Positions 666 through 32,000 of a stretch of DNA of 32,000 nucleotides are shown here, in pieces. The translations under genes and the position numbers were made by a program. The stretch's first letter is position 1; every line of letters begins with the position of its first letter. The notes beneath the pieces were generated by a model. The model was not told the origin of the DNA. It saw nothing but the letters and a program-made list of their open reading frames with translations, and did no database searches. This DNA comes from Candidatus Saccharimonadota bacterium (GTDB taxonomy: Bacteria; Patescibacteriota; Gracilibacteria; BD1-5; UBA6164), in assembly GCA_965227835.1 (NCBI GenBank), contig OZ245768.1, positions 930,001 through 962,000 of the forward strand, given 5' to 3'.

Positions 666-1235
666 AAGGGGCTAAAATAGTTTTTACCAGTTTAAATCTA
701 ACTGATTTCCATCAATGGTTTTATCCTTATGTTGCTGATGTTGAACATAATTTTTTATCATATCCAAGTCAAGTCAAACTGTACTTACATAGTATCATCT
801 ACTCCAGAAATTCTTCGAGTACAGTCATTTCTTCTTACTATGTTTGTTATGAAGTATTATTGCACTCTTTCATTTCAATCTTCACAGAATTTCTGCAACA
901 GAGTATTTTGGAGATATCCTCAAAACGAGATGAACATGATCTATCGTTATATTTCATTTTAATATCTCAAAATCATATCTCTTTGCAAGTTCATGAAATG
1001 TGTCTCGTATATCTTTTCTAACTGATTGAAAAAGTATTTTTTTTCGGTACTTTGGTACCACCACTATGTGGTAAGTGCAGTCCCAATTCACATGGGACTG
1101 CTTTGCGTATTTGTGGGACATATCTTTAAAAAGTTATTCCCCTCCTAGGTGCTTCCTAGAAGATTATACACAACTACCGGAACGGTAAAACCTCCACTAC
1201 TCGCACCAGCAGAGCTGGTGGTTTAGTGTTGGATT
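619..1235 (-). mobile_element. IS200/IS605-family insertion (tnpA only), inserted at the stop codon of LRR paralog 1
   Basis: The empty site is visible at 3670-3690 (gatgataattaaattttt); here the same sequence is split by ~617 bp. There is no obvious target duplication. Subterminal perfect hairpins are typical of the family: CTACCAG-n5-CTGGTAG (627-645), AGCCCCT-n3-AGGGGCT (657-673) and CACCAGC-n3-GCTGGTG (1204-1220). Confidence 0.85.
684..1121 (-). CDS. tnpA: IS200-type Y1 (HUH) transposase TnpA, 145 aa, intact
   Basis: Hand translation: MSHKYAKQSHVNWDCTYHIVVVPKYRKKILFQSVRKDIRDTFHELAKRYDFEILKGNITIDHVHLVLRISPKYSVAEILGRLKGKSAIILHNK...FWSRGYYVSTVGLD. It carries the HxH (HVHLV) motif and the catalytic-Tyr region. 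Four in-frame TGA fall where Gly is expected (LKG, ILGRLKGKS). Length is 438 nt. Confidence 0.9.
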
Positions 1236-1658: not shown

Positions 1659-2864
1659 GGGACCTCTGCAAAAAGATAGATTTAAATTACAAAAATATAA
1701 TAAAAAGATTAAAATATGATAAATATTTTAATTTTTTTTTAATGATTATGTCACCATTTAAAGAACAACAAACATTTTTGAATTATTTCCAAAATGAGTT
1801 ATGAATTACAAGAACAGAAAAGTTTCTAACAAAATTAGATAAAGTAGTCCCATGGGAATCAATATCAAATAAAATTAATTTATCTAGAGAAATATCAGAT
1901 TGATGAGTTTGAAGACCAAGAATGGAAATACAAAAAATGTTAAAAATACTATTTCTTCAATGACTATATGGATTATCAGATCCGGAAATAGAAGATCAAA
2001 TAAGAGACAGAAATAGCTTTCAAAAGTTTCTATGAATATCTGAATCTAAAGATATACCAGATGAAACAACAATATGTAGATTTAGAAATGAATTATCAGA
2101 AAACTGAAGTCAGGAAACTATATTTACAATGACTCAATTTATTTTAGCTGAAATGTGATTTACAGTAGAAAAGTGATTTATTCAAGATGGTACTATAATA
2201 GAATCACCAAAATGAAGAAAGAATAATAAATGAGAAAATACAAGAGATAAGGAAGCTAGTTTTACAAAGAAGAATTGAAGAAGTTATCATTGATATAAAG
2301 CTCATATTGAAACAACAAAGAGAGGAGACTTTGTAATGAATACAACATATACGACAGCTAAGATACATGATTCACAATTATCTGATACTTTAATGACTTG
2401 AGATGAGAGTGAAGAGGCATATTGAGATAGTGCCTATATAAGTAAAGATAAAATAAAATTTTTAGATGAGTTATGAATTAAGTGAGAGTTCAATGAAAGA
2501 TGATCTAGAAATAATCCGTTGACTTCTTATCAAAAAGAACAAAATAGAATTAAATCTACTATTAGGGCAAGAGTAGAACATCCTTTTTCTATTTTAAAGG
2601 CTAAATATTGAAATTATAAAACAAGATATAGATGATTAGTTAAGAATGCTATGCACTGGTTTTTATCTTGTGCTATTTATAATTTTGAACTATTGGCAAG
2701 GAGGTATATATAGCTTTCTAATAGGTGAATTGTGCCTAAATTTGGAAATTATACCTAAAAAAAGGCATAATTCATAGAAATTATCTTATATATTCTTCAA
2801 AAAAAGTGATTTTTATTCAAAATCACTTTTTTCTTGTTCTTTTCAACAATATTGCAGAGGTCCC
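1659..2864 (+). mobile_element. IS5-family insertion sequence (about 1.2 kb)
   Basis: Terminal inverted repeats are GGGACCTCTGCAA (1659-1671) and TTGCAGAGGTCCC (2852-2864). They are flanked by direct TAAA (1655-1658 and 2865-2868). The uninterrupted target gaacTAAAataaaaag is seen at 4091-4106. Confidence 0.9.
1742..2713 (+). CDS. IS5-family DDE transposase, 323 aa
   Basis: Table 25 gives a single 972-nt ORF. Family-typical strings are GRPRMEIQKMLKILFLQGLYGLSDPEIEDQIRDRNSFQKFLGI, KKNGRSYHGYKAHI and RARVEHPFSILKAKYGNYKTRYRGLVKN. Every TGA sits at a position that is Gly in IS5-type transposases (GRP, FLGI, HGYKAH, YRGL). Confidence 0.9.
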
Positions 2865-3626
2865 TAAAATAAAAAGTTTAGGAAAATTGACAAAAGTTTG
2901 AGGCTTTTTAAATTTAAAATGAAGTTCCATAATAAATTTAGGAGATTTAGAGAAAGTTTGGGGAAGTGTAAATTTAGATTGAACTAAAATAGAAAGTTTA
3001 TTTAAACTAAAAGAAGTTTGAAGAAGTTTAGATTTATCTTTTACTTCTATAACAACCCTAGGAAATTTAGAGAAAGTTTGAGGAAGTTTAGATTTATCTT
3101 TTACTTCTATGATAAGCCTAGGAAATCTAAAAGAAGTTTGAGATAATTTAGGTTTGAGATGAATATCAAGAAAAAATATAAAAAATATAATAAAAGAGAT
3201 AAAAGATAAAAAAATACATATATGAGGTGAAATTATATATGATTGAAGAGCTTTAGACATTTATAAAGAATTTTCAATTTTCTTTAACTACTTGTGAGAA
3301 TTTAATGATGATGAAAATTTAGATAATTCAAAAATAGAAAAAGAAAAACAGGAATTTATCAAAAAATACTGAACTAGTAAAACGAAAAGATCATATTCAG
3401 TAAAAAAAGATTTAAATTTAATTGCAAACATATTTTTTTACTTTCTTATAGATAATATCATAGAAAAGTGAGCTAAAACTAAAAATCAGATAGAAGAATT
3501 AAAAAAAAGTAATAGAGATGAAAAAAGTATAAAAGAAGAAATAATAAGTTTAAAGTTAGCATTACACAATAAGTTGGATGAAAAATTTAGTGAAATAAAA
3601 CATTACTTTTGAGAAGATATAAAAAA
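2865..3626 (+). repeat. 762-bp block identical by eye to 4095-4856 (3' halves of LRR paralogs 2 and 3), part of a ~1.23-kb tandem gene duplication
   Basis: Line-by-line comparison found no mismatch until 3627/4857. The 5' parts (1215-1658 vs 3655-4098) differ at a few scattered positions. Confidence 0.85.
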
Positions 3627-3699
3627 AAGATTAGAAGATGAATTTAAAATGGAAATGACAAAGAATAGTGATGATAATTAAATTTTTATTTAAAAAATA

Positions 3700-4983
3700 A
3701 TGGTAGATAAAAATAACATTCTTGAAGAAAAATTAACACCTAAAGATAGACTAAAAATTATTCTAAATCCTGAAGATTTCAAGGATTATGAGAGAATGGT
3801 TGAAGAATCAGAAGGTATTATTTCTTGGGAGAAATTGGAAGAATATAGTGAGTTTGATGAAAATCAAAACTTGAAAGGTATATATTGGAAGGGGAATTTA
3901 GATTTAAGTTGAACTTCTATAACAAGCTTAGGGAAATTAAAATATGTTTGAGGAAATTTAGATTTAAAATGGACACCTATAACCGATTTAGAATATTTAG
4001 AGAAAATTTGAGGATATTTAGACCTAGAATCAACTTACATAAAAGATTTATGAGAATTAAAAGAAGTTTGGGGAAGTTTAAATTTAGCTTGAACTAAAAT
4101 AAAAAGTTTAGGAAAATTGACAAAAGTTTGAGGCTTTTTAAATTTAAAATGAAGTTCCATAATAAATTTAGGAGATTTAGAGAAAGTTTGGGGAAGTGTA
4201 AATTTAGATTGAACTAAAATAGAAAGTTTATTTAAACTAAAAGAAGTTTGAAGAAGTTTAGATTTATCTTTTACTTCTATAACAACCCTAGGAAATTTAG
4301 AGAAAGTTTGAGGAAGTTTAGATTTATCTTTTACTTCTATGATAAGCCTAGGAAATCTAAAAGAAGTTTGAGATAATTTAGGTTTGAGATGAATATCAAG
4401 AAAAAATATAAAAAATATAATAAAAGAGATAAAAGATAAAAAAATACATATATGAGGTGAAATTATATATGATTGAAGAGCTTTAGACATTTATAAAGAA
4501 TTTTCAATTTTCTTTAACTACTTGTGAGAATTTAATGATGATGAAAATTTAGATAATTCAAAAATAGAAAAAGAAAAACAGGAATTTATCAAAAAATACT
4601 GAACTAGTAAAACGAAAAGATCATATTCAGTAAAAAAAGATTTAAATTTAATTGCAAACATATTTTTTTACTTTCTTATAGATAATATCATAGAAAAGTG
4701 AGCTAAAACTAAAAATCAGATAGAAGAATTAAAAAAAAGTAATAGAGATGAAAAAAGTATAAAAGAAGAAATAATAAGTTTAAAGTTAGCATTACACAAT
4801 AAGTTGGATGAAAAATTTAGTGAAATAAAACATTACTTTTGAGAAGATATAAAAAATAGGTTGAAAGATGAATTTGAAAAAGAAATGGCAGATCTAAATA
4901 TCTATAAGAAAAAATCTAAAAATAAACTTAAATCAAAATACATAAACATAAAAAATATAGTAAAAAAATTATTTAAGAGCTAA
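3700..4983 (+). CDS. LRR protein paralog 3, intact, 427 aa (N-terminal domain, >=8 LRRs of 20 aa, charged/coiled C-terminal domain)
   Basis: A continuous 1284-nt frame with 18 in-frame TGA (Gly) and no TAA/TAG, checked codon by codon. Repeat pattern: LDLSGTSITSLGKLKYVGGN / LDLKWTPITDLEYLEKIGGY / LDLESTYIKDLGELKEVWGS / LNLAGTKIKSLGKLTKVGGF ... There is no signal peptide and no SD. Confidence 0.85.
3901..4380 (+). repeat. Tandem 60-bp coding repeats (one 20-aa LRR per unit, 8 units)
   Basis: The period is exactly 60 nt, so units line up with the 60-nt sequence lines. Consensus is gatttaNNNtgaactNNNataNNNNNNttaggaNNNttaNNNgaagtttgaggaNNNtta. The same repeat type occurs at 1-110, 1455-1658 and 2866-3150. 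Confidence 0.9.
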
Positions 4984-5107: not shown

Positions 5108-5503
5108 GTGAAAAACAAAAAACTAGTCAAAAAGACATATGTTTGTTTTATGTCTCATAAATCACTTTTGCCAAAAGAATTATTGATAGAAGTGAAAGAG
5201 CGTAATCCAGAAAAATTGGATATTCCCGTTGACTGTATAGCTTTTCAATTTTTTGATGTTATTGGTAGAGAAGATAAAAACAATCACAAAGAAAAAGCTA
5301 GAAAACATAGTAACAGGGTAAATATATCCAATTTATACTATGTTGATGCAACTATTAAGGATAAGGACCAAGTTACTAAGGAAAGAGGAGAGGATTGTCT
5401 ACTACTTTTTAACATGTCAGTAAATGGTTGGGAAAAAGTCGTTCAATGTAAGAATGGTCACATAGAACCACTTAGAGTAGGTGATATCTTTGTTACTACA
5501 TAG
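5108..5503 (+). CDS. Hypothetical protein, 131 aa, TGA-free, GTG start
   Basis: AGGAGA sits 7 nt upstream of GTG 5108. The track's TTG 5075 start has no SD. It ends at TAG and is followed by a hairpin. I recognise no family. Confidence 0.55.
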   Translation: MKNKKLVKKTYVCFMSHKSLLPKELLIEVKERNPEKLDIPVDCIAFQFFDVIGREDKNNHKEKARKHSNRVNISNLYYVDATIKDKDQVTKERGEDCLLLFNMSVNGWEKVVQCKNGHIEPLRVGDIFVTT

Positions 5504-5565: not shown

Positions 5566-5605
5566 AAAAAAAGAAGCCAACTCTTACGAGTTGGCTTCTC
5601 CTATT
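5566..5605 (-). terminator. Intrinsic terminator of the four-gene operon (bidirectional)
   Basis: GAAGCCAACTC-ttac-GAGTTGGCTTC. It is flanked by an A7 run on the + strand (a U-run for the minus transcript) and by ctattttt on the other side. Confidence 0.8.
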
Positions 5606-5649: not shown

Positions 5650-6435
5650 TTATCCACAAAAGCCTTCATTGGCAGTTTGACTGAAAGAACCAGCATTTTG
5701 ACTAGCTCTTACAGCAGACTGACTGAAAACTTGAAAGGCCTTTCTAATCTCACTTTGAGAATTTCCAGGTGTGAGAATCCATTCATCACGAACACCCATA
5801 TCCGAAAAAACTCGCTTGAAATTAGTACGACCATCATCAATACCCATACCTGCAATAATGTGAACTTCACTAAGAAGCATATCATTTACAATTTTTTTTA
5901 CCTCAGGTGATTCTGCACGGGAATGTTCATCACATCCATCAGTAATAAAAAGTGTAGCTGTACGACAGGAAACTCCACTATCATTAAACTGCTTACATTT
6001 TGCAAGCACTGTTGCCAAGGTAACAATAGCTTTATCAAATAAAGGAGTTCCACCCATAGGAGAGTATTGCTGACTTATATCTATGTCTCCAGATATTGGC
6101 TGACAAGGATACAAAACTCCACTATTCATAGCAATAGCATAAACTAGTATGCTATCTTTTTGCTTAGAATCATATAGAGATTTAATTACCTCATCATGCC
6201 CATCAATAACAGTTTGAGTATTGTTGGAATAACCAATAGAACTTGAATCATCAGCCAATATTGAAACAATCATGACTTCGCTTGATTCAATATCAATATC
6301 CTCAGGAGTCAAACCAAGACCTTCTTGGATTTGAGCTCCCATATCATTGATTTTTATGACTTCACGAGCCTCAGGGGATATGGCCCCTTCTTGCTCAGAA
6401 CCATCAAAAAGATCTTCTAAATTTTGATTACTCAT
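5650..6435 (-). CDS. von Willebrand factor A (vWA) domain protein, TerY-like, 261 aa
   Basis: The MIDAS motif is complete: ILADDSSSIG (DxSxS), MGGTPL (Thr) and LFITDGCDEH (Asp). SD AAGGAGA lies 7 nt upstream. There is no in-frame TGA and the stop is TAA. Confidence 0.8.
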   Translation of the reverse strand: MSNQNLEDLFDGSEQEGAISPEAREVIKINDMGAQIQEGLGLTPEDIDIESSEVMIVSILADDSSSIGYSNNTQTVIDGHDEVIKSLYDSKQKDSILVYAIAMNSGVLYPCQPISGDIDISQQYSPMGGTPLFDKAIVTLATVLAKCKQFNDSGVSCRTATLFITDGCDEHSRAESPEVKKIVNDMLLSEVHIIAGMGIDDGRTNFKRVFSDMGVRDEWILTPGNSQSEIRKAFQVFSQSAVRASQNAGSFSQTANEGFCG

Positions 6436-6466
6436 TTTTAATTCTCCTTAATAAAAGAGGGATGAT

Positions 6467-6502
6467 GGTAGGAAGAAAAGGTGTAAAGCTTAACTTCCTA
6501 CC
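6467..6502 (-). promoter_or_regulatory. Intra-operon stem-loop between the hydrolase and vWA genes
   Basis: GGTAGGAAG (6467-6475) pairs with CTTCCTACC (6494-6502) around an 18-nt loop. It lies in the 73-nt gap, which is the only sizeable gap in the operon. It could be a partial terminator or an RNA-stability element. Confidence 0.4.
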
Positions 6503-6508
6503 AATATT

Positions 6509-7555
6509 TTAACTAAAATTTGGCCAGTTACCAAAATCCACGGATTTGACAACATTCATACCCGCATTGCGATAACGATCCAAAGCTGCTTCAGCTTGAG
6601 GAGTATAATCAACCAAAATTCCACCCTGACCATCAGGAACTGTAACAGCAGACATACAGTCTTCCATTACATAAACCTTTTTGGAAAGTTCAGAATTTTT
6701 GCTACTTATCTCACCAATTAAATCATCAATAGATGACAAGACACAGTGGCTAGAAGCCTGACCAGCGATAATGATACGATCATAGTTCAACAAAGAATTG
6801 AAAAAATTCGTATTTTTCTGAGCAAGCTGTGTTCCCTTATTATCATGACGACCTAATACTTCAGGCCTCAAAATTGAATAATTCTCTGTAAGAGGATGTC
6901 CACCTTTTATTTCACAAAGACCCTGACTTCCTCTAACATAGCTGTGAAACAATCTTGCTTCCTCTATTACTCCAGCCAATGCATGTCCAGGAGAACCAAG
7001 AAAACAATGTTCAGGCCACAAAAAAAGCTGATATTTACCTTCTTTTTCAAGTTCTTCACAATAGTAAATACACTGTTTCAAAAGCCAAGAATAAGCTCCT
7101 TTATCACCTGTAACTGCTTCTGTAACCAAGGGATTTGGTTTACAAATACCTTTTTTGATATCATCAGCAGTTACAATAGTATGGGAATCAGGGTTTGATC
7201 CATCCTCTCTTACCCAAAAAAATGGGAAAAAGATTTGGATAGGAAAGTGAGTATCAAGAGTGGTAGTAATTTGAGAAATACTACCCATATTTTTATGGAT
7301 AAACTCTGCTATCCTAGTAGAATCCTCTATGGCTCCTTTACCACTTCTACCTGCAACATACAAAGAACCTTCAGGGAAACAGAAATCCTTTTGCATATCT
7401 ATAAGAAGTAAAAGTGTTTTAAGCCTATCCATACTGGCAGGTTTGATGGAATTGGTAGACCTAAAATCATTTGCTTCTGTCGAAATCCCTCTTCGATCCG
7501 GCTGATAATCATAAAGCCCAGAGTTATTAGGGTTGAAAAAACTTGGTATATTCAT
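6509..7555 (-). CDS. Isochorismatase-fold cysteine hydrolase, PncA (nicotinamidase)-like, 348 aa
   Basis: Motifs are colinear with E. coli PncA. LLLIDMQKDFCFPEGSLYVAG matches LLLVDLQNDFCAGGALAV (catalytic Asp). LDTHFP matches DWHP. LWPEHCFLGSPGHAL matches FWPDHCVQNSEGAQL. EIKGGHPLTENYS matches HKGENPLVDSYS (Lys). AGQASSHCV matches GLATDYCV (nucleophile Cys). SD AGGAGA lies 7 nt upstream. There is no TGA. Confidence 0.75.
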   Translation of the reverse strand: MNIPSFFNPNNSGLYDYQPDRRGISTEANDFRSTNSIKPASMDRLKTLLLLIDMQKDFCFPEGSLYVAGRSGKGAIEDSTRIAEFIHKNMGSISQITTTLDTHFPIQIFFPFFWVREDGSNPDSHTIVTADDIKKGICKPNPLVTEAVTGDKGAYSWLLKQCIYYCEELEKEGKYQLFLWPEHCFLGSPGHALAGVIEEARLFHSYVRGSQGLCEIKGGHPLTENYSILRPEVLGRHDNKGTQLAQKNTNFFNSLLNYDRIIIAGQASSHCVLSSIDDLIGEISSKNSELSKKVYVMEDCMSAVTVPDGQGGILVDYTPQAEAALDRYRNAGMNVVKSVDFGNWPNFS

Positions 7556-7569
7556 AATGTTTTCTCCTG

Positions 7570-9417
7570 TTATTTCATCTGGATATTCCAGATATCTTGG
7601 TTAGATTTAATAGCTATTAAGCCAGAAGATCCCGGCAATAAAAAGCTATGAGAGTCAACGAAGCGAGCAGTATCACGAAACTGCTTTGTTTCAACTAAGC
7701 TAGAGTTTTGTGCTTCTATACGCACAATTCCCTCATCACTAGATGAAAAAAGCATATTTCCTATAAAACATTTGCCTCGTATATTTGAAAGCCAATCTCC
7801 AGAGTTCTGATTTGATTGGCTTGAAGCTATAACCTGTCCTTTACTATCTATAAAGTAAGCTGAATTTATTACTTCTCCATTTTGTTTGATAGAAGTAAGA
7901 AAGCATACTCTATTTTTAGAAAAGAAACAAGTAGCATCTATTAGTTGTCCTTTGATACCAGGTATTGATATACTATCATTTATACCTCTGTAATCAGTAT
8001 TAAATAAGAAAAATACACTCAAACCTCCTCCAAAGTAAAAGCCAAAACCCAAACTATCTCCTACCCAAAACAAGGTTCTGTTAGTCAAAACTTGCCCTAC
8101 GGTTTCAGGATAAGAAGGTCCCATATCAGAAACTTTTATCAAACTACCATTTCTTATAAAGAAGCTATTTTTAGAATTAGCTCCCAAAATAGGTAGTCTT
8201 CCATAAGTTTCAGTATCTATGGTTTGGGTTTCATTTTTTCCTAAGATGACAACTTTGTCGTTTTTTCCAACAAGGGTTTTTTCTCCATTTATACGAAAAC
8301 GAATATATGGATCCAAATCACCTTTGACAAAAGAATTATCTCCTTCACGAAAGTAGCTACCTTGAGAGTGATATATGTACCTAAGTTTACCATCTTGAAC
8401 AGTTGCATAAAGTATTTTTCCAGAAGTTGAAAAAATCTTTTTAGCAGAAACTTTTCCTAAGATAACCTCTTTTTCTCTTATGGATGCAGTTTTTTCAGCA
8501 ATTACAGAAAGTAAATTTCCTTGCTCATCAAACTTAAACCTATCCATAATAGAAATTGGGAATTCCTCTCTTTTATCTTCTTTGAATACTTCTTGCAAAT
8601 ATTGCAAAAACGAATCTGGAAGAGTAGAAAGAGGTTTAGCTGGTTTTGGGTATATTACATCATCTGAAAATAGTGTTATGCGTTTTAATGGACGAACTCT
8701 TTCAGGAACTCTATCCTTTTTATCTTTAGGTCTATATACACCACCATAAGGGCCTACATAAATCAAAGTTTGCATAAGCATAATTAGATATGCATACCAA
8801 TCTGACAATTGATTGTGAGGTTTTACAAGTTTAGTAGATTTTGATTTTTTATCACATATCAATGGATCTACAAACTTATTGGTAAAAACATTACAAAAAT
8901 AATTCCCAAACTGGACACTATCAAAATCTATCAAGTAAGGCTTATCTTTTTTTACCAAAACATTCAAGTCATTGAAATCTCCTATCACAACTCCAGCTTT
9001 ATGTACGGATTTAACTATAAAAAACAGATTTTTGAATATTTCTATAACCTGTTTATCACTGACAAACCCTTGTCTAAAACTTTTATTGGAGTATCTAAGA
9101 AGTACCTCTGCATCTTTCACCATATCCATTGTATAACCTACGATTTGTTTTTTTTGATCAAAAGCAAAATCAATAGGTGTAATGACAAAAGGGGAAAAAC
9201 CACTTGGTAGTTTCTTTAGTTTTGTTTGGTGCTCCTTTATTTTTTGAGAAGCACTTTTTTGATCTGAAGGAGAGTTTGCAAAGATGGGATGTTCTGGTGG
9301 TTTAAAGAGCTTTAAAGCCCTAGTTTTTGATATTTCATATATTTCAGCCTCTCCCCCACTACCAATAATTTGGTCAGGAGAAAGATTTACTGATTTATTA
9401 CGTATCAAAACTTTCAT
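7570..9417 (-). CDS. Ser/Thr protein kinase-like protein (YegI/TerY-P-type) with a ~320-aa beta-rich C-terminal domain, 615 aa
   Basis: Kinase motifs are the glycine loop IGSGGEAEIYE, the Lys in RALKLFK, the catalytic loop VIGDFNDLNVLV and the DFG equivalent LIDFDS. The C-terminal half is rich in G/S/beta-strand repeats (...ILYATVQDGKLRYIYH..., ...LFWVGDSLGFGFYFGGG...). SD AAGGAGG is present. There is no TGA. Confidence 0.75.
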   Translation of the reverse strand: MKVLIRNKSVNLSPDQIIGSGGEAEIYEISKTRALKLFKPPEHPIFANSPSDQKSASQKIKEHQTKLKKLPSGFSPFVITPIDFAFDQKKQIVGYTMDMVKDAEVLLRYSNKSFRQGFVSDKQVIEIFKNLFFIVKSVHKAGVVIGDFNDLNVLVKKDKPYLIDFDSVQFGNYFCNVFTNKFVDPLICDKKSKSTKLVKPHNQLSDWYAYLIMLMQTLIYVGPYGGVYRPKDKKDRVPERVRPLKRITLFSDDVIYPKPAKPLSTLPDSFLQYLQEVFKEDKREEFPISIMDRFKFDEQGNLLSVIAEKTASIREKEVILGKVSAKKIFSTSGKILYATVQDGKLRYIYHSQGSYFREGDNSFVKGDLDPYIRFRINGEKTLVGKNDKVVILGKNETQTIDTETYGRLPILGANSKNSFFIRNGSLIKVSDMGPSYPETVGQVLTNRTLFWVGDSLGFGFYFGGGLSVFFLFNTDYRGINDSISIPGIKGQLIDATCFFSKNRVCFLTSIKQNGEVINSAYFIDSKGQVIASSQSNQNSGDWLSNIRGKCFIGNMLFSSSDEGIVRIEAQNSSLVETKQFRDTARFVDSHSFLLPGSSGLIAIKSNQDIWNIQMK

Positions 9418-10261
9418 TTACTTCCTCCTTTGTAGAATATTTTTTTTTGATAACTACTAGTGTAGTATCATCTTTGAGAAGACCTGGTAATAACCTTCCA
9501 TTGTAAATACTTTCTCTGTTAAACAAAGAAAGTTTTCTTGTAATCATACTGGAGTTATCAACATATTTATCTTCTTCCCAAAATTGGCTAATATCTCCAA
9601 CGATATTGTTGGTATTTGGAATAGTTTTGTCACTAGCTTTTATCAAATCAAGAACTCCATCGCTACCTAATAGTATGTTGTCATATTGTTTAGGTTCTAG
9701 AATTTCTTTTATACTGATATCAAGAAGTGAAGGGTTTTCATCAAATAAAGCTGAACCTGTGATATTATACATAATATATGGTGGAGCATTAGCTGGAAAT
9801 GGTCCAGACTCTTTTATTTCACCATCTATTATATATACCCCATCTCCACAAGAAAATATATAAGCTTTTCCACGAACAATAACTATTCCTATTATAGTAA
9901 ACAAAAAATATTGGTTTACTATTTCAGAAATACTATCACCCATACTTTCAGCTAAAACTGAGAGCTTGCTTATAAAACTCATTTTTATTCTATTCCAAAA
10001 ATTGCTTTTTAACTGAGGATTATCTCCAGATTGAAGTAAACGATTTATCTGATCAAATATCAATTTTGAGAGAATCTTAGAAGCTATTTTTGCTCCTACT
10101 TCGCAGTGTTTAGAACTACCACAGCCATCTGCAATTACCGATACCAACACATCATCATTTTTCTCCCAAGAGAAACTATCATGATTATTGGTAAATCCGG
10201 GTTGTCCCGTTTTTATATGGTCAGTTCCCGCTATGGAACCTCCTGCTATTCTAATATCCAT
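9398..10261 (-). CDS. PP2C-family Ser/Thr phosphatase (PP2C_2-like), 287 aa
   Basis: MDIRIAGGSIAGTDHIKTGQPGFTNNHDSF..., VSVIADGCGSSKHCEVGAKIA..., SCGDG... and LLGSDGVLD match the metal-binding Asp motifs of bacterial PP2C. I chose ATG 10261 because AGGAGA lies 8 nt upstream. The track's 10402 start adds 47 low-complexity residues with no SD. The 3' end overlaps the kinase start by 20 nt. Confidence 0.75.
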   Translation of the reverse strand: MDIRIAGGSIAGTDHIKTGQPGFTNNHDSFSWEKNDDVLVSVIADGCGSSKHCEVGAKIASKILSKLIFDQINRLLQSGDNPQLKSNFWNRIKMSFISKLSVLAESMGDSISEIVNQYFLFTIIGIVIVRGKAYIFSCGDGVYIIDGEIKESGPFPANAPPYIMYNITGSALFDENPSLLDISIKEILEPKQYDNILLGSDGVLDLIKASDKTIPNTNNIVGDISQFWEEDKYVDNSSMITRKLSLFNRESIYNGRLLPGLLKDDTTLVVIKKKYSTKEEVNESFDT

Positions 10262-10402
10262 AAATAGTTTCTCCTGTTTTTTCATAGATGTTAATGAACT
10301 AAAGGTGTTGTTTATACATTTAAAGCATTTGTAAATAAAAAATTTTTTGCTTTTAAATAATAAACAATAGCTTTTAAATTTAAATGTCAAAATGACACTC
10401 AT

Positions 10403-10667: not shown

Positions 10668-10752
10668 TATCCTCCTGTTCTATTCTTGTTCTATCCCCTC
10701 TCCTTCCAAAAGGAGAGGGTTAGGGTGAGGGCTTGTTTGGGTTAGGATGAGG
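10668..10752 (+). repeat. GC-rich hairpin repeat, copy A
   Basis: ttctatCCCCTCTCCttccaaaaGGAGAGGGttagggtgaggg...gggttaggatgagg. It shares a ~50-nt core with copies at 11217-11308 (same orientation) and 28782-28822 (inverted). Confidence 0.85.
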
Positions 10753-11216: not shown

Positions 11217-11308
11217 TCCCCTCTCTCTGTCCCATCCCTTCTGTTCTATCCCCTCTCCTTCCAAAAGGAGAGGGTTAGGGTGAGGGACTGCTCGGGTTAG
11301 GGTGAGGT
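11217..11308 (+). repeat. GC-rich hairpin repeat, copy B
   Basis: ttctgttctatCCCCTCTCCttccaaaaGGAGAGGGttagggtgagggactgctcgggttagggtgagg. It is a direct repeat of copy A, ~545 bp away. Confidence 0.85.
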
Positions 11309-16083: not shown

Positions 16084-19083
16084 ATGTTTGATCCATCAAA
16101 AATAAACTTAGATTTAGAAGGCAATGAAGGTGAAAATACTCCTGAAGAAAGCAAAAAACAGGAGGAAACAATAATTAATGAACAAGATAATATAGATTCA
16201 TTAGAAAATAAAGAATTGGAAACCAAAATTGAAAACAAAGAGGAAAATCAAAACCAAGAAGAAAAAGAAAATGAGGTTTTAATAGATAATATAGATGAAG
16301 AAAAAGTGGAAGAAAAAAAAGAAAACTTAGATGTCTTTGAAGAAAAAGAAGTAAATGAAACAGAACAAAATCAAAACCAAAAACAAGAAGAAGATGAAGA
16401 AATAAAAAAAGAAAATAGGACTCCAAACGAAAATGAGTCTTCAAATCAAAATCAATCCCCGATACAAGATAAGATAGAAGAAAAAGAAGAAGAAAAAATT
16501 ATATTTGATATAAATATAAACTCTCTTGATTATTTAATGAAATACCTAGTATCAAAAGAATATGATTTTTTTGTACTAGAGCCAGAAGAAGACAAAATAA
16601 AAGTAAGCTTTAGAAAAGACAATTTAGAAAAAGAACTGAAATATATAAAATACCCTACCTATACAAATATATTGCTCAAAGCAAAAAGTCTCACAAAATT
16701 AAAAATAGAAGAAACAAACATAAGCCAAGAATGAACAGCTGAAGTATCTATGAACAAAAAAGTTTATAAAGCTTTATCAAAAACAGCACCAAGCACATCC
16801 TGAGAAAAATTATTTTTCAAAATGGCAAGTACAGAAAAAAAAGCAGAAACGAAAAAGAAAAAGGGGATGAGTTTTGGAAAAATGATGTCAATATTTTGAG
16901 GTTTATTTTTCACAGCAATATTGATTTGATGAGTATTTATATCAATAGTACTTTTCAACTCAAACTCCATATCTGACCTACAATTTTTCAATAATCTATG
17001 AGTAAACACAAATGCCATAAAAGATTTTGCAGCAAAAGTAGTAAATTGAGTTTTTGGAATGATACTTGTAGTTGAAATAATAATACTTTTTATCTTCTCA
17101 TACAAAGCACTTTTAACAAAAAAAGATTTTAAAAAAGATAAAATAACAAGAATAATAATATCTATGTTTTTCCTAGTTTTATCAGTAATAACCTTTATAA
17201 CTTGGATGTTTTTAGCTCAAAAAATTAACTCACTGAAAGGATTGAATTATTGAAAAGTTGAATTTTACGATAACTCCAAATATCTATCAGAACTATTTTG
17301 AGAACAATGATCAAAAATAAATATATCAGAAAAAATTATATGACCTATAAATATAAGATTCAACAACAAGGAATTTATCCAAAAACTAGTAGATGACTGA
17401 TTTTCTCCGCAATCCGTAACTTGGGTAATATGAAAAACAAAAAAAGAAGTAGCAGTAGAAGATTATGAAACAACATATGAATTTAGAGAAAAATGACTTA
17501 CAGATGTAAACCTTGTCATAAGTGGTACAAATATAAAATGAGAAATTGAAGAAATAGAAAAAAATATATGAAAAATAAATATTTCAAACACCGTAAAAAT
17601 AGAAGAGATAAAACTAGACAACGGATGATCAAAATTTGTATTTGATGCTTCTGATCTAAGGTCTCTTTGAAAAGTAAAATGGTATTATATACCTTCTTTG
17701 GAATGAAAAACAGATGATGAGATTAATAATATAGTGGCAAAATCTCTAAGTAAAGAAAAATTAGAATGATATAAATTTAATTCTAAAAATATATTTGAAT
17801 GAGAGGAGTATTATTGAATAAAAATAGTAAACTCTTCATGAGAACCAGAAGAGCTAGATAAATTATTTATTATATCAAAATGAGATAAAAATGAAGTATC
17901 ATGAGAAATAGAAAGTATAAATGATCCAAATGATGATAAAAAATATAGCTTTGTATTTAAAAACCCAGAAACAAATATATGAGAAGCATATATAAGCAAA
18001 TATGTTTGGAGAATACAGGATTTTGGTGATTCTGGTGAGGAAAACTATGTAGTTATAGAAAAAGATGCAAATCTAAGTAATTTAGAAAATTCAAGTAAGA
18101 TAAGCTATACTTTTAAAAAACAGTGAATACATAATGTAGTACTTGATATAATAGACTCTGATTGAAAAACACAAACTTTTACAGATAAAATAGAGATTAA
18201 AAAAAGCCTAGATTTACTTACAAAACTAAGCTTCAAAGTTGATAATAGAGAGTTGAAATATGGTGAAGACATTATATATGAAAGAGAAAATAATACTTAT
18301 TACCTAGAAAATATCCTTGCTCCAAGTTCTATAGAAATAGATGCTAATAAAATCAGAACTACGAGTTGAAGGTATGGATTAAAAACTGTAGAGTTTGATT
18401 TGGACAGTGATTGAAGTTTTGAAACGATAGAGAGAAAAACAAAATATGATTTAATCAAAGGTTGAATAAAAAGCTTTAAGGTGAAGTATAAATTTGTAAA
18501 CAAAAACATACAAGAAGAAATAATTGATATAGTTGAAACTATTCATATAACTTGAACAGATAGAGAAGCAATACTAGATTTAAAAATAATAAAGCCAAGT
18601 TCTTATGTACCTGTTATAGTGAAATTTGATGCATCAAATTCTAAGGTAAATTGAAAAGATATAGAGAAATTTATATTTGATTATGGAGATTGAACAGAGC
18701 CTGAGGAAAGGGATTCTATAAATAGCTGACGCAGGTATGTAGAGGCATGAGAATATGATATAAAGCTAAGTGTAGTTACTTCTGATTGATCAAAGTATGA
18801 TTTGAAGAAAAAGCTTATTTTGAGAAATAAACCTCAAAAGGCAGTAATAAGTACGAGTTTAAAAAAAGCTCCAGTTTATCAAACAATTGATTTTTCGGCT
18901 GAAAAGTCTATATGAGAAGTATGAAGTTATTTTTGGGATTTTTGAGATGGGAGTACATCCACTAAAATGTCTCATAGTCATTCTTATGATAAAGCTTGAA
19001 AATATAGTATAAAGCTAGAAATAGAGTTTAGTAACAAAAATATATTGAAAGATGAAATTGAAATGGAAATATATGAAGATTAG
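16084..19083 (+). CDS. Large membrane protein with an acidic low-complexity N-terminus, a GspE/PilB-N-like segment, 3 TM helices and multiple extracytoplasmic PKD domains, 999 aa
   Basis: An exact 3000-nt table-25 frame, checked line by line with no TAA/TAG. PKD signatures are FDASNSKVNGKDIEKFIFDYGDGTEPE...YVEAGEYDIKLSVVTSDG and IDFSAEKSIGEVGSYFWDFGDGSTS...HSYDKAGKYSIKLEI. TM segments lie at ~16885-16960, 17050-17103 and 17152-17217. Confidence 0.85.
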
Positions 19084-20170
19084 GAAATGTGAAAATTAAA
19101 TGAATTTGGTAATGGTCCTTTAGATAGGTACCACCAATTTTAGCAAGATTATCTAGGATAAGGACAGGGAAATTATTAAATTTTGTAGGAAGAATTATAT
19201 TACAACTTCTAAGTTTTTCAATAGGACTTAAACCGTTCATACCTATTCAAAAAGAAGGTCTATAATTATTATAAGTATAAATATATTTACTACTATGGTT
19301 TAAAAAATTAGGAAGAGATTTCATGCGATCAAGATAAGGTCTATATAATTCTTCATCATCAGTTCTATGAGATCTCTCTACAATTCATTGAAGATATTTT
19401 TTTCAAGCAGGAATACTCTTAAAACAGCAATTTATATTATTTAATATAGCATTCCACTGATTTTCCTTTCTCTTACTTCATCCACAAAAATCAGCAGGGC
19501 CATTATCTCATTGAAATTCCATATGATAATATATTCACATACTCCTAAGATATGTAGCTATAGTAAGTATAAACATAAGACCAAATTCAGAAGAAAGACT
19601 ATGAGAATAAGCTATAAATTTATATTTTGTTTTAGCACATATATATGTCCATTGATATAAAGGAAGATTATATTTTCTTAGTATAAAACAAAGTTCTCAT
19701 AAAGCTTCAAAATCTTCTATATGCTTTGTATCTACTTGACCATACTCAAAGGGAAGAATATTTTGATAATCGTATAGAGGTTTACTATCTCATTTTCTAC
19801 GAGAATAATGATGCTTTTTTACTTTGTTTCTTTTTAGTATATTTCATATAGTAGAGGAAGAGAATGTTATTCCATATCTGAGGAATAAATACTTTGCTAG
19901 ACGTACTCTTCAATATTTTGTTTTATTTCGTTCTTGTAATACAAGTCATTCTAAATCAGAAGATGTTTTTTTATTATGAGGAGTCTTAGGAGCTCTTGAT
20001 ATATTTTCTATAGGACCATCTCTACTTCTTCTTACTGTTTTACGAGAACATCATAATATATAAGCTGTTTTACTTACGTTTCCTTTGTTTTCTTCAAGTA
20101 TCGACCTCGCGAGGATTCTTGCTGATTCTACTCCTTGCTTAGTACACATTTTTTCATATAATCATTTCAT
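19028..20170 (-). CDS. IS481-type DDE transposase (HTH + integrase core), 380 aa
   Basis: The HTH is ...NVSKTAYILGCSRKTVRRSRD. The catalytic triad context is YGQVDTKHI, EFQGDNGPADF and IVERSHRTDDEE. It is a 1143-nt table-25 frame. The ORF has no stop inside the IS and reads through the left IR into flanking DNA, ending at TAA 19028-19030, antisense to the last 56 nt of the PKD gene. Confidence 0.8.
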
Positions 20171-20377: not shown

Positions 20378-20839
20378 ATGGAAAAAAATGATTCGGGTTA
20401 TGATCCTATAAAAATTTTTTTTATTTCAATTCTTTTTATTATTGCCCTTATGCCGCTTATAATTTCTATAAATGCGAAAGAACAAAATGCAAATAAGTTT
20501 CTAGAACATTATGGGGTAAAAATAGATATTTTAAATTCAACCATAAGAATTAGATCAACTTTGGTTTTAGAAAGTTTTGGTAATTCTTTCCCCCATTATG
20601 ATTATGATGGATATAGCCAAACTCATCTAGCAGATATTGATCTTTCGTATGAGGAAAAAGAAATTGTAATTGGATCTTTAGCTCAAAATTTCCCTTCTAA
20701 TACTAAGCTAAGTTTTTTAAATTTTCCAGAAAATGAAAAAGGAGAACTTTTATCAATTATAAATGAAAATTTTCCTAATCATTACGAAAGTATAGATTTT
20801 GTTTATAGTAGAGAAGAGGATAAATATCCTAGCTTTTAA
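20378..20839 (+). CDS. Cassette protein 1: small membrane-anchored protein, 153 aa, TGA-free
   Basis: SD AAGGAG lies 6 nt upstream. The N-terminal TM is IKIFFISILFIIALMPLIISI. The C-terminal motif ENEKGELLSIINENFPNHYESIDFVY is shared with the 21060 and 22650 products. The stop is TAA. Confidence 0.7.
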   Translation: MEKNDSGYDPIKIFFISILFIIALMPLIISINAKEQNANKFLEHYGVKIDILNSTIRIRSTLVLESFGNSFPHYDYDGYSQTHLADIDLSYEEKEIVIGSLAQNFPSNTKLSFLNFPENEKGELLSIINENFPNHYESIDFVYSREEDKYPSF

Positions 20840-20893: not shown

Positions 20894-21068
20894 ACGAGAG
20901 AGCCAGCTTTGCTGGCTCTCTTTTCTTATTTTTTAATATTATGTTTTAGAATTAAATAAAAAACTTAAGATTTCAAGATTTTTTCTTGACTTATTTTAAA
21001 ATATTATTATAATATATAGTACTTATTAAGTTTTCCAATTTTTCAAAAAGGAGTTTCTTATGGAAAAA
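20894..21068 (+). repeat. 175-bp terminator-promoter-leader-ATG module, copy 1 (near-identical to 21500-21675)
   Basis: acGAGAGAGCCAGCtttGCTGGCTCTCTtttcttattttttaatattatgttttagaattaaataaaaaacttaagatttcaagattttttcTTGACTtattttaaaa...TATAATatatag.acttattaa.ttttccaatttttcaaaaAGGAGttt.ttATGgaaaaa. It contains the terminator hairpin 20896-20921 plus T-run, and promoter 20986-21013. Confidence 0.9.
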
Positions 21069-21494
21069 TTTAATGTGCCTGTGCTAAAATATATGAAAAA
21101 AGGCATTATATCTTTAGTACTTTTGGTATTTACTTATTGGGGATATACATTTTTTGATAAACTGCCTGACTCTCCGATTGAATTCATGGGTGTTCCTCTT
21201 GTTATTATTGTATGTATTTGGTTTCTTTTAGGAAATTCCAAAAAAAATTCAGCTTTAATTGCTTGCTTATTTTTATTAGCTTTTGCAATTTTTGGTATGA
21301 AAAATTCAATATCAAAACAAAGTGAACTAAATGAAATATTACAAGCATACAATGTATCTGGAGATTTTTATAGTAATGGAATACTTAAGGTTTTCTCAGT
21401 AAATAGTGAGCTTTCGTCTCAAAGAAAAGGAGAAATCAAACAAATTTTAGGAGGCATATATCCTAGTCATGAAATAGTATTTGTGACTAAATAG
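21060..21494 (+). CDS. Cassette protein 2: small integral membrane protein (3 predicted TM), 144 aa, TGA-free
   Basis: The SD is AAGGAG. TM segments are GIISLVLLVFTYWGYTFF, MGVPLVIIVCIWFLLG and ALIACLFLLAFAIFGM. The C-terminal domain YNVSGDFYSNGILKVFSVNSELSSQRKGEIKQILGGIYPSHEIVFV is shared with the 22650 product. The stop is TAG. Confidence 0.7.
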   Translation: MEKFNVPVLKYMKKGIISLVLLVFTYWGYTFFDKLPDSPIEFMGVPLVIIVCIWFLLGNSKKNSALIACLFLLAFAIFGMKNSISKQSELNEILQAYNVSGDFYSNGILKVFSVNSELSSQRKGEIKQILGGIYPSHEIVFVTK

Positions 21495-21694: not shown

Positions 21695-22370
21695 TCTTCT
21701 ACCCCGGCCTGAAGGCACGGGGCTTTTATTTGTACTGAAATTTAAAGCTCTATCTCTTCAATCTTATTCTCTTCTTCTCACTGTTGTTCCACATAATTAG
21801 ATATTATTTCTCAATTTATCTCTCATACACTAGATACAAAATATCATACTCACCATATATTTCATGTCTTCCAATACCATCTCTTAATTTCTTTGTAAAA
21901 ATACCTCTTTATTGCCTTAGAACTTTCTCACTTTATATGTCATACTATTGTAGATATTGGTTTAGTTAACGGTATCCTACAATACATATGTACATGATCT
22001 TCTTCCATTCATATCTTTATTATTATTACTCATAGCTTTTTACTTATTCATCTTATGATCTTTTCCAATCTATCTTGTATCTCTTTTTCATGAATGGATT
22101 TCTGTATTTTGTTATCCATACTATATGGTATCTGACATCATATGTCGCATGACTACTTTTTTGGTATTTCATTCTCTCTAGTGTTAGTTTTTAACACTAT
22201 TTTATTTATTCTATTGATTTTTTACACTTTTTTCTTTAGAATCGGCCTGAAGGCAACGGGGTTTAAAACCCTATGTCACAACACATCTCATTTATTCAAT
22301 TTCTATCACTTACACCTTCGGTGTCTTAACTATCTAAAGATAGGGGTTTTTATCCCGATGTGTTGAAATT
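21695..22370 (-). mobile_element. Second IS200/IS605-family element (a different lineage from 619-1235), inserted in cassette 3
   Basis: It contains a Y1 transposase gene and structured ends. These are CCCCG-gcctgaaggca-CGGGG (21702-21722), a second ggcctgaaggca at 22244-22255, CAACACATC...GATGTGTTG (22279-22366) enclosing ACACC-ttc-GGTGT, and CTATCT-aa-AGATAG. The boundaries are approximate. Confidence 0.7.
21742..22172 (-). pseudogene. tnpA: IS200-type tnpA with a frameshift
   Basis: Frame a reads MKYQKSSHATYDVRYHIVWITKYR and then stops early. Frame b continues ...KSIHEKEIQDRLEKIIRGISKKLGVIIIKIGMEEDHVHMYCRIPLTKPISTIVGHIKGESSKAIKRYF...WKTGNIWGVGYFVSSVGEINGEIISNYVEQQ. The total of 431 nt is one nt short of a multiple of 3, and the shift is near 22095 (agaaatcc). 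A sequencing error is possible. Confidence 0.75.
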
Positions 22371-23023: not shown

Positions 23024-23923
<900 letters not shown>

Positions 23924-25344: not shown

Positions 25345-28683
<3,339 letters not shown>

Positions 28684-31595: not shown

Positions 31596-32000
31596 CTAAC
31601 TTTCAAGACTATTTTTTATAATCTCTTCAAGCTCAGAAATCATATTCGGATTATCTTTTAAAAATTTTTTGGCATTTTCTCTTCATTGCCCTAATTTAGT
31701 ATCTCCGTAAGAAAAAAATGCTCATGATTTTTTGATAATTCAAGAATCAACTCAAATATCTATAATTTCTCATACTTTGGATATACCTTCATTATACATT
31801 ATATCAAATTCTGCTTCCCTGAAAGGAGGGGCAACTTTATTTTTTATAACTTTTACTTTTGTGAGACTTCAAGTAGCTTCTTTTTCCATTCAAGTTCATA
31901 TTTCTATCTTTGCTTTTCTCCTAACATCAATTCTTTGAGAAGAATAAAATTTCAAAGCATTTCATCAAGTTGTAGTCTCTGGAGAACCAAACATAACTCA
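31596..32000 (-). CDS. recA: Recombinase RecA, C-terminal 134 codons (5' end outside the window)
   Basis: ...[31 protein letters not shown]...[67 protein letters not shown]. The GG of TTTGGNALKFY is encoded TGA-TGA. Confidence 0.95.

Follow-up and report, generated by a model that had tools for sequence, protein, structure and literature searches.

The locus described here is a four-gene cassette in a 32,000-nucleotide (nt) stretch of Candidatus Saccharimonadota DNA (contig OZ245768.1, positions 930,001 to 962,000), the whole of which is called the window below. In order, the cassette encodes a PP2C-family phosphatase, a protein kinase of about 600 amino acids (aa) with a beta-propeller, a long PncA-like protein and a TerY-like vWA protein of about 260 aa (Table 1). 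The third gene is the main subject. Its product is a PncA-clade hydrolase with a conserved active site and a nicotinamidase-like fold. The four genes are held in tight synteny across phyla, and NrtR operators and genes of NAD metabolism lie around the cassette in many lineages.

Table 1. Positions of the cassette genes, their parts and other features in the window.
Feature	Position	Strand	Details
Long-form PncA-like nicotinamidase open reading frame (ORF)	6509-7555	minus	ATG...TAA, 348 aa
PncA-like ORF, catalytic residues	Asp53 7397-7399; Lys217 6905-6907; Cys271 6743-6745	minus	Invariant in alignment A1
PncA-like ORF, metal ligands	Asp101 7253-7255; His103 7247-7249; His183 7007-7009	minus	Invariant in alignment A1
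PncA-like ORF, N-terminal extension	aa 1-46 = 7418-7555	minus	First core beta-strand begins at residue 47
PncA-like ORF, family-specific insertion	aa ~104-178 = 7022-7246	minus	Between DTH and WPEHC
Ser/Thr-type protein kinase, 615 aa	7570-9417	minus	Kinase domain aa 1-~290 (8548-9417)
Kinase, C-terminal seven-bladed all-beta domain	aa ~317-615 = 7573-8469	minus	AF2 model
PP2C-family phosphatase ORF	9398-10402	minus	PF13672 PP2C_2
TerY-like vWA protein, 261 aa	5650-6435	minus	Alignment A3
Promoter-like TTGACA-17-TAAAAT	10431-10403	minus	11/12 positions
Promoter-like TTGACA-16-TAAAAT	10533-10506	minus	11/12 positions
Intrinsic-terminator-like hairpin	5569-5602	minus	15-bp stem and T run, 48 nt after the vWA stop; closes the four-gene unit
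Insertion sequence (IS)/integrase ORFs	684-1121(-), 21742-22119(-), 1742-2713(+), 19028-20170(-)		Transposase/integrase matches

Judged by sequence comparison, the PncA-like ORF is a real gene and not a chance ORF. This is because 1957 homologues at E<=1e-3, the closest at E=2e-215, came out of a search of 5.8 billion proteins, and because the ratio of nonsynonymous to synonymous substitution rates (dN/dS) is 0.18 against a 97%-identical strain. A sequence-only reading of this DNA had placed the gene inside a phospho-signalling operon. It is indeed flanked by a PP2C gene, a 615-aa kinase-like gene and a gene for a protein of about 261 aa with the motif of a metal ion-dependent adhesion site (MIDAS).

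The phosphatase matches PF13672 with an E-value of 3.6e-13 (50 bits against a cut-off of 24) and is 25% identical to E. coli PphC (E 7e-7). Translation probably begins at the ATG at 10261 and not at 10402, because AGGAG lies 8 nt upstream of the former and homologues begin MxIxIAGGS. The start at 10402 overlaps a promoter-like site, and the N-terminal 47 codons of the longer ORF resemble a translated AT-rich leader.

The kinase scores 29.5 bits against Pfam Pkinase, below the cut-off of 31.7, and Lys36, Asp147, Asn152 and Asp164 are invariant in the kinase alignment (A2). Its AlphaFold2 (AF2) model has a pLDDT (predicted local distance difference test) score of 90.9 and places 28 strands after residue 317, apparently as a seven-bladed beta-propeller. 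The kinase domain resembles the eukaryotic-type protein kinases GRK, LRRK2 and CaMKII in Foldseek searches, and it is 25% identical to the kinase domain of E. coli YegI (E 7e-8). A small-molecule kinase was also considered. This idea is not favoured, because the model matches protein kinases and the gene is paired with PP2C. In 22 of 31 relatives the linker between kinase domain and propeller (aa ~290-320; window 8460-8550) forms a zinc ribbon of the pattern CxxC...CPxC, whereas 9 of the 31 kinases, including that of the window, have a Cys-less 'FD..GNLL' variant.

The vWA protein has the MIDAS residues DDSSS (aa 62-66), Thr130 and Asp166. The DxSxS...T...D pattern, DDSxS in this family, is conserved in alignment A3, and so is a Ser-rich C-terminal tail, FSQSAVRASQ. 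The hhalign match to E. coli YegL is weak (E 2.4e-4, probability 43%). Pfam vWA models match 3 of 24 family members, marginally (E 0.012-0.045), and leave the 261-aa window protein unmatched; a sequence search of the PDB with this protein gave no match. UniRef names some of the family 'VWFA domain-containing'. Phosphatase, kinase and vWA protein together look like a divergent TerY-P-type triad, given the distant homology to E. coli YegI and PphC and the weak homology to YegL.

The long PncA family and its synteny

The catalytic landmarks named in the sequence-only reading are all colinear in the translation: Asp53 in IDMQKDF, Lys217 in EIKGG, Cys271 in ASSHCV and His183 in WPEHC. The DTHFPIQ string that it quoted is present too, and holds Asp101 and His103. 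Its estimate of an N-terminal extension of about 45 aa was accurate, with the first core beta-strand at residue 47, and the insertion it put at about 60 aa measures some 60-75 aa between DTH and WPEHC. What does not hold is the description of the protein as atypically long. A length of about 350 aa is usual throughout a large family. The best 120 homologues are all ~345-360 aa and are 55-68% identical over their full length (a strain variant reaches 92%), so the extension and the insertion are family traits. An exhaustive profile search at E<=1e-30 found at least 653 clusters (50% identity) of the long form.

How close is this family to known nicotinamidases? An alignment of 30 long-form members (A1) has 96 invariant columns, among them Asp53, Asp57, Phe58, Asp101, His103, Trp180, His183, Lys217, Tyr226, Ser227 and Cys271. 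In the M. tuberculosis and E. coli enzymes these invariant residues correspond to the PncA triad, the Asp-x-His...His ligands and the aromatic pocket for the substrate; Phe58, Trp180 and Tyr226 are the ones that align with substrate-pocket residues of M. tuberculosis PncA. Sequence-only searches of the PDB, with the protein or with the family profile, barely reach PncA. A fold search and hhalign were therefore used. By hhalign, the long form aligns with E. coli PncA at E 7e-10 with WPxHC, the catalytic Lys and the Cys in register. In the alignments to 3pl1 and E. coli PncA, the catalytic residues fall on the corresponding segments and WPEHC falls on WPPHC and WPDHC. Overall sequence similarity to the characterised enzymes is weak.

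The AF2 model (pLDDT 81.5) has the isochorismatase-like fold and is closest to solved nicotinamidases. The top Foldseek matches are 2wt9 (A. baumannii), 3v8e (yeast Pnc1) and 3o93 (S. pneumoniae), all nicotinamidases, at E 2e-7 to 1e-5 and with target template modelling (TM) scores of 0.69-0.75. They come ahead of carbamoylsarcosine amidase (CSHase), biuret hydrolase (BiuH) and RutB. A fold search of BFVD returned only giant-virus nicotinamidase-like proteins. A loop that follows the catalytic Lys (aa 219-240) is strongly conserved, is modelled with low confidence and borders the active site. It could serve as a lid, or as a surface for docking.

In nicotinamidases, the metal ligands hold a metal that contacts the unsubstituted pyridine nitrogen. 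The sequence-only reading had seen a changed metal site in the long form and had taken it as a reason to doubt nicotinamide as the substrate. It is true that the variable extra His of the E. coli and M. tuberculosis enzymes is missing. However, Asp-x-His and the WPxHC His are invariant in the family, and with all three ligands and Phe58, Trp180 and Tyr226 kept the argument against nicotinamide loses its force.

One recurrent fusion is seen in the family. It joins an uncharacterised N-terminal domain of about 245 aa to the long PncA (P0107, P0361-P0365, P0384, P0393; L179 4535-6337). The domain, for which Pfam and the PDB gave no match, is marked by the motifs GRIxRG, DDPxR, TWDN, DPRYMT and RAFLYFT. 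The fusion in L179 forms part of the usual cassette; next come a canonical PncA, a NadD/NAD-kinase fusion, GNAT and an ADP-ribosylglycohydrolase (ARH). The homologues on Vibrio and Variovorax megaplasmids (30% identity) were set aside, since they lack the kinase/PP2C/vWA triad and their context is unrelated.

The gene order around the long form is conserved to an unusual degree. In a set of 80 species genome loci seeded with the PncA profile, the vWA gene directly follows PncA in 78, and kinase and PP2C genes lie upstream wherever the flank exists. In a reciprocal scan of metagenomes, seeded with the kinase, 57 of the 60 informative loci have PncA downstream, and 45 of 47 have vWA. Relatives therefore share the linkage as well as the extensions; the same extensions without kinase and vWA genes, which the sequence-only reading would have read as the sign of an ordinary housekeeping enzyme, are not the pattern. 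The cassette is kept in Myxococcota, Elusimicrobia, Cyanobacteria and the candidate phyla radiation (CPR), and the kinase has its best homologues in CPR/Patescibacteria. The same order is found in Myxococcus stipitatus and in Elusimicrobia; NrtR stands ahead of it in both, and in Elusimicrobia PncB comes after it. The kinases of these cassettes share only 33-47% identity, yet PncA keeps its place between kinase and vWA in at least four phyla. Throughout Myxococcaceae and Archangiaceae, the cassette keeps its position and its content.

Filamentous cyanobacteria also carry the cassette, sometimes with an ARH gene inserted or at the usual place of PP2C. In L178 (2223-6149) this gene lies between PP2C and kinase. 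In L176 (1220-3900) it is directly upstream of the kinase, and no PP2C was found within 8 kb. Uma2-family genes break up the cassette.

NAD salvage, NrtR and a possible phospho-switch

A link between the locus and NAD+/nicotinamide pools had been suggested from the sequence, and comparison gives it strong support. In many lineages the neighbours of the cassette include nrtR, pncB, nadE, nadD, nadM, pnuC and ARH genes, and in the kinase-seeded scan another NAD gene is present in 20 of the 26 loci of at least 12 kb. One CPR cluster reads PP2C-kinase-PncA-vWA-ARH-NadE-PncB, with NadM-Nudix and NrtR opposite. A second has NadD-PncB-NadE-PnuC downstream of the cassette. In small CPR genomes the cassette sits among housekeeping NAD genes and ribosomal genes.

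The second part of the link is an operator. A sharply conserved palindrome, WTAGTGT-N7-ACACTAW, recurs at the cassette and fits what has been published for NrtR, whose sites are palindromes of 21 bp built on a GT-N7-AC core (Rodionov et al. 2008, PMC2330246). When 135 loci (2.04 Mb) were scanned with up to 1 mismatch, 93 of them showed TAGTGT-N7-ACACTA either at nrtR or closely upstream of PP2C. The scan gave 158 sites in all, 125 of them in these PP2C-upstream and nrtR zones. At least 16 of the other 33 lie ~80-120 bp upstream of PncA, in Archangiaceae and Myxococcaceae. The cassette is thus a predicted member of the NrtR regulon in most lineages. Published NrtR regulons list no kinase, PP2C or vWA genes (PMC2330246). 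In vitro, ADP-ribose frees NrtR from its sites on DNA (Rodionov et al. 2008, PMC2330246). The TerY-P triad has been proposed to be a phospho-switch, with a zinc ribbon often found behind its kinase (PMC11090510).

What might a nicotinamidase be doing in such company? On balance, it is probable that the cassette couples a nicotinamidase of an NrtR- and ADP-ribose-controlled salvage regulon to a TerY-P-like phospho-switch. The long PncA would be a metal-dependent cysteine amidohydrolase that turns nicotinamide into nicotinate, the nicotinamide being a product of NAD+-consuming enzymes. Membership of the NrtR regulon together with Preiss-Handler neighbours (PncB, NadD, NadE, sometimes PnuC or ARH) suggests that the cassette would be switched on when NAD+ is broken down, with ADP-ribose freeing NrtR. 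The kinase and PP2C would then reversibly phosphorylate the vWA protein, PncA or both. The vWA protein would dock on PncA through its MIDAS site and gate deamidation, so that the switch sets the speed of nicotinamide clearance and its return into NAD+. Nicotinamide is the substrate that the sequence comparisons suggest. We infer the physical coupling of PncA and vWA, phosphorylation as the control step and the direction of control.

A number of observations weigh against this model. The long form scores 25.9 bits against PF00857 (Isochorismatase), under the cut-off of 27 and over the N-terminal 40 positions only. It scores 23.8 bits against NCBIfam PncA NF008623 (PRK11609), where the cut-off is 174, and the match between the long-PncA profile and 3pl1 (M. 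tuberculosis PncA) is weak (E 0.0095). A canonical short PncA lies directly beside the cassette in four related loci (L094, L096, L164, L179); the one in L179 is 32% identical to E. coli PncA (E 3e-31). The vWA assignment is built on motifs and weak profile matches. Among the homologues no fusion of PncA to vWA or kinase was found, the ~245-aa domain being the only recurrent fusion partner, and the literature searched held no biochemistry of, or paper on, the long-form subfamily. The window itself lacks NrtR (by tblastn), PncB and any TAGTGT-N7-ACACTA site with up to 2 mismatches. Finally, the association has exceptions. NrtR and long PncA occur without the triad in two of the 80 loci (L081, L084), and PP2C and kinase without PncA in three further loci (L127, L129, L144).

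The short PncA genes raise the question of whether the long form acts on free nicotinamide at all. If both were plain nicotinamidases, one would be redundant. Perhaps the extension, the insertion and the loop after Lys217 have remodelled the pocket for a different amide, such as a nicotinamide analogue, a modified pyridine or a protein- or nucleotide-linked amide from NAD+/ADP-ribose turnover, and it is this reaction that the triad controls. The conserved, poorly modelled loop at the active site, the recurrent fusion and the scores under the curated PncA and isochorismatase cut-offs fit this suggestion. Even so, we regard both the suggestion and its remodelled pocket as unlikely. The metal ligands and the residues aligned with the aromatic pocket are invariant, the nearest folds are nicotinamidases and not CSHase, BiuH or RutB, and in most NAD clusters the long form is the sole PncA-like gene next to PncB (e.g., L003, L086, L087). 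What the short neighbours do indicate is that the long form is not simply the housekeeping enzyme. Where the two adjoin, it could be a conditionally regulated isozyme, an enzyme for a related substrate or the nicotinamide-sensing input of the switch.

Another account is that the long form is an ordinary housekeeping PncA with lineage-specific decorations, and that the triad is independent of it and merely shares its operon. The loci in which one part occurs without the other speak for this account, and so does the separate NrtR operator directly before PncA in Archangiaceae. It is very improbable all the same. At least four phyla share the order with PncA between kinase and vWA, despite kinase identities of 33-47%, and in phages the components have been reassembled in other orders. 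Hitch-hiking would not survive divergence and rearrangement on that scale.

The phage copies were found by tblastn against phage genomes. Their PncA-like proteins are 30-35% identical to the long form and shorter (265-302 aa), with the triad and the metal ligands kept; the vWA counterparts match PF00092 weakly. In one huge phage (L173) PncA is next to vWA, and PP2C, kinase and a Nudix gene follow. In a second (L174) PncA, vWA and PP2C lie within 8 kb, with PncA and vWA ~2.5 kb apart. A 6.5-kb gut scaffold labelled 'Bacteriophage sp.' (L172) has the order PncA-vWA-PP2C-kinase. PncA and vWA are therefore direct neighbours in two of the three phage loci (L172, L173), and the phage versions indicate that the four-part association is older and wider than the long-form family.

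Could the cassette then be mainly a conflict module? In that case the TerY-P-like triad would sense infection or NADase activity and the kinase would act on other targets, while PncA would be an effector that shifts nicotinamide/NAD+ availability or a nicotinamide-sensing input. TerY-P-like triads are reported to be stand-alone anti-phage systems (Gao 2020 via PMC11090510). All four components occur together in two huge phages and the phage-like gut scaffold. In a Myxococcaceae metagenome-assembled genome (L007, 5229-8825) a PARIS-like pair (AriA E 1.4e-24, AriB E 1.3e-18) is inserted between the cassette kinase and PncA. ADP-ribose, which frees NrtR in vitro, is itself a product of NAD+ cleavage (PMC2330246), and the cassette shows mobility, as a TGA-free island in two code-25 lineages and through allelic replacement of its PncA-vWA half (see below). 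Against this, the cassette is stable in Myxococcaceae and Archangiaceae and sits among housekeeping NAD and ribosomal genes in CPR genomes, unlike patchy defence islands. It has no toxic effector domain. No PADLOC defence model matches PncA, PP2C or vWA, and the kinase gives weak generic kinase matches only, but this null result is uninformative because the E. coli YegI/PphC/YegL triad has no specific PADLOC match either. Phage-encoded four-part sets, one PARIS insertion and a reported defence role of similar triads make the link to phage defence circumstantial, and neither the conflict module nor the part it would give to PncA seems likely. The L007 insertion also holds an extra Ser/Thr kinase. 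Several Archangiaceae loci have similar gaps of 1-5 kb, and PncA then has its own NrtR operator.

The cassette in a code-25 host

The host of the window uses code 25, in which TGA is read as glycine. TGA occupies the glycine positions of the GxGxxG motif in thioredoxin reductase, as well as conserved Gly positions in RecA and leucyl-tRNA synthetase (LeuRS) (e.g., 23024-23923(+), 25345-28683(-), 31596-31994(-)), and ORFs of at least 150 aa amount to 8.4 kb of the window by the standard code versus 30.5 kb with TGA as sense. The GC content of the window is about 25%, which makes a CPR bacterium of the Gracilibacteria or Absconditabacteria type the probable host. In host genes, TGA accounts for 247 of 351 Gly codons. 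The four cassette genes (5650-10402(-)) have none among 115 (P about 1e-61), and they also have a higher GC content and T-ending rather than A-ending codons. By its composition the cassette thus looks foreign, an island without TGA in a code-25 genome. It also looks as though it has lost NrtR control and is driven by its own promoter or promoters. The two sigma-70-like promoter matches upstream of it are only suggestive, since the total of such matches in this AT-rich region is not above that in shuffled sequences.

One explanation for the TGA-free state is a very recent transfer. However, the closest other relative of the cassette lies in a second code-25 lineage (PncA 69%, kinase 59% identity; L171 198-4818, L170 432-2134), and it too is TGA-free, with 0 TGA among 119 Gly codons in L171. 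This second cassette adjoins TGA-rich ARH and NadR-like genes, and in the flanking host genes of both cassettes TGA makes up 45-70% of Gly codons. The two cassettes are each other's closest relatives, their synonymous sites are nearly saturated and both use T-ending codons, unlike their hosts. A very recent transfer as the full cause is therefore weakened, because the closest relative is equally TGA-free at near-saturated synonymous divergence. Two explanations remain. Either both lineages were seeded independently by related standard-code donors, or TGA is actively avoided. Possible reasons for avoidance are that the cassette must stay translatable under contested decoding or that it shuttles between hosts of different code.

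With these data in hand the model can be stated more broadly, though also more tentatively. It is possible, but rather doubtful in this full form, that the cassette is a multi-phylum module in which a TerY-P-like switch gates, or is informed by, a long nicotinamidase, which is armed by ADP-ribose through NrtR, which huge phages have copied for a fight over NAD+ and which stays TGA-free in code-25 hosts.

A 97%-identical strain shares the locus (on the cassette side, L001 10001-11905 corresponds to 6509-7555 plus 5650-6435 of the window). Between the two, dN/dS is 0.18-0.32, which indicates purifying selection on the cassette genes. Synonymous divergence (dS) is 0.21-0.25 for PncA and vWA versus 0.03 for PP2C and kinase, the range for PP2C, kinase and host genes together being 0.02-0.09. 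This contrast indicates that the PncA-vWA half was exchanged as a unit, by allelic replacement. A DDE transposase beside the cassette of the strain was considered as part of a mobile cassette. It is instead a strain-specific insertion, just upstream of the PP2C gene of L001, of the IS5 that the window also carries (98% identical). The same region holds a hairpin element of ~45 nt, cctcaccctaaccctctccttttggaaggagaggggatagaac, which occurs twice upstream of the window cassette (~11240-11290 and ~10695-10745, in minus-strand reading) and resembles a repetitive extragenic palindrome (REP) or a miniature inverted-repeat transposable element (MITE).

The window as a whole has a heavy IS load, with two IS200-like Y1 transposases, a DDE transposase of the IS5 type (DUF772/DDE_Tnp_1) and an integrase that matches the rve type weakly. 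A gene with leucine-rich-like repeats occurs as a tandem duplicate (1260-1679 plus 3109-3681 versus 3700-4983(+)), and the IS5 splits the upstream copy. The antisense ORFs 2823-3260 and 4035-4490 are artefacts of its repeats. Three more small ORFs are TGA-free, 5150-5503(+), 20378-20839(+) and 21060-21494(+), with 0 of 5, 0 of 6 and 0 of 10 Gly codons, respectively. None has a meaningful Pfam match, and they may also be foreign.

Comparison with known systems

The long form can be compared first with PncA and Pnc1 (2WT9, 3V8E, 3O93, 3PL1 and the E. coli enzyme). It has the same fold, the collinear Asp-Lys-Cys, the Asp-x-His and WPxHC His, the F/W/Y pocket residues and the KG...YS motif, and like them it is frequently linked to pncB and NrtR. 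It differs in length (~350 versus 180-220 aa), with the 45-aa extension, the ~60-75-aa insertion between metal ligands and, behind the catalytic Lys, a conserved loop of greater length. It also lacks the fourth His of E. coli and M. tuberculosis PncA, falls below the family cut-offs and is nearly always flanked by kinase, PP2C and vWA genes. Control of bacterial PncA is known mainly at transcription, through NrtR, NiaR and NadR, and in yeast the clearance of nicotinamide by Pnc1 is a control point for sirtuins. If the proposed coupling is real, a kinase/phosphatase/vWA switch would add a post-translational layer to nicotinamidase control, in a module that is spread over hundreds of species and also occurs in huge phages.

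The triad of a TerY-like vWA protein, PP2C and Ser/Thr kinase was reportedly described as TerY-P by Anantharaman, Iyer and Aravind in 2012. Its kinase usually has a C-terminal zinc ribbon or OB fold, and a beta-propeller is outside the described architecture. The cassette, TerY-P and E. coli YegI-PphC-YegL combine the same three protein types in one operon, with distant homology and often a zinc ribbon after the kinase. In the cassette, however, a nicotinamidase gene stands between kinase and vWA, the kinase bears an extra seven-bladed beta-propeller and the setting is a NAD-salvage cluster under NrtR operators, not Ter genes or restriction systems. Moreover, its vWA protein is too divergent for Pfam, and the window kinase has lost the zinc-ribbon cysteines. 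A nicotinamidase would be the first concrete metabolic partner for these poorly understood triads. No description of the association was found in the literature searched, where a mention in the 2012 Ter paper stays possible.

Much current work on bacterial immunity and phage counter-defence revolves around the depletion and reconstitution of NAD+, and NARP1 and NARP2 are NAD+ reconstitution pathways of phages. Phage PncA-like genes, such as that for gp275 of the megaphage phage G (PMC12484599), could offset NAD+ depletion. The huge-phage homologues described here, which are shorter than the long form and 30-35% identical to it, come with vWA, PP2C and kinase genes, a combination that is not described for NARP pathways or phage G. 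A cassette that stays TGA-free in two code-25 lineages also bears on how genes move and survive across genetic codes.

In relatives of the window, the cassette resembles NrtR salvage operons (nrtR-pncA-pncB) in its adjacent nrtR, its 21-bp GT-N7-AC operator and the pncB, nadD, nadE and pnuC genes in the cluster. It is unlike them in carrying kinase, PP2C and vWA genes, and the window copy is unlike them in having neither NrtR nor operator. What appears to be new, as far as the literature searched goes, is the joining of three known kinds of element: PncA, a TerY-P triad and an NrtR regulon.

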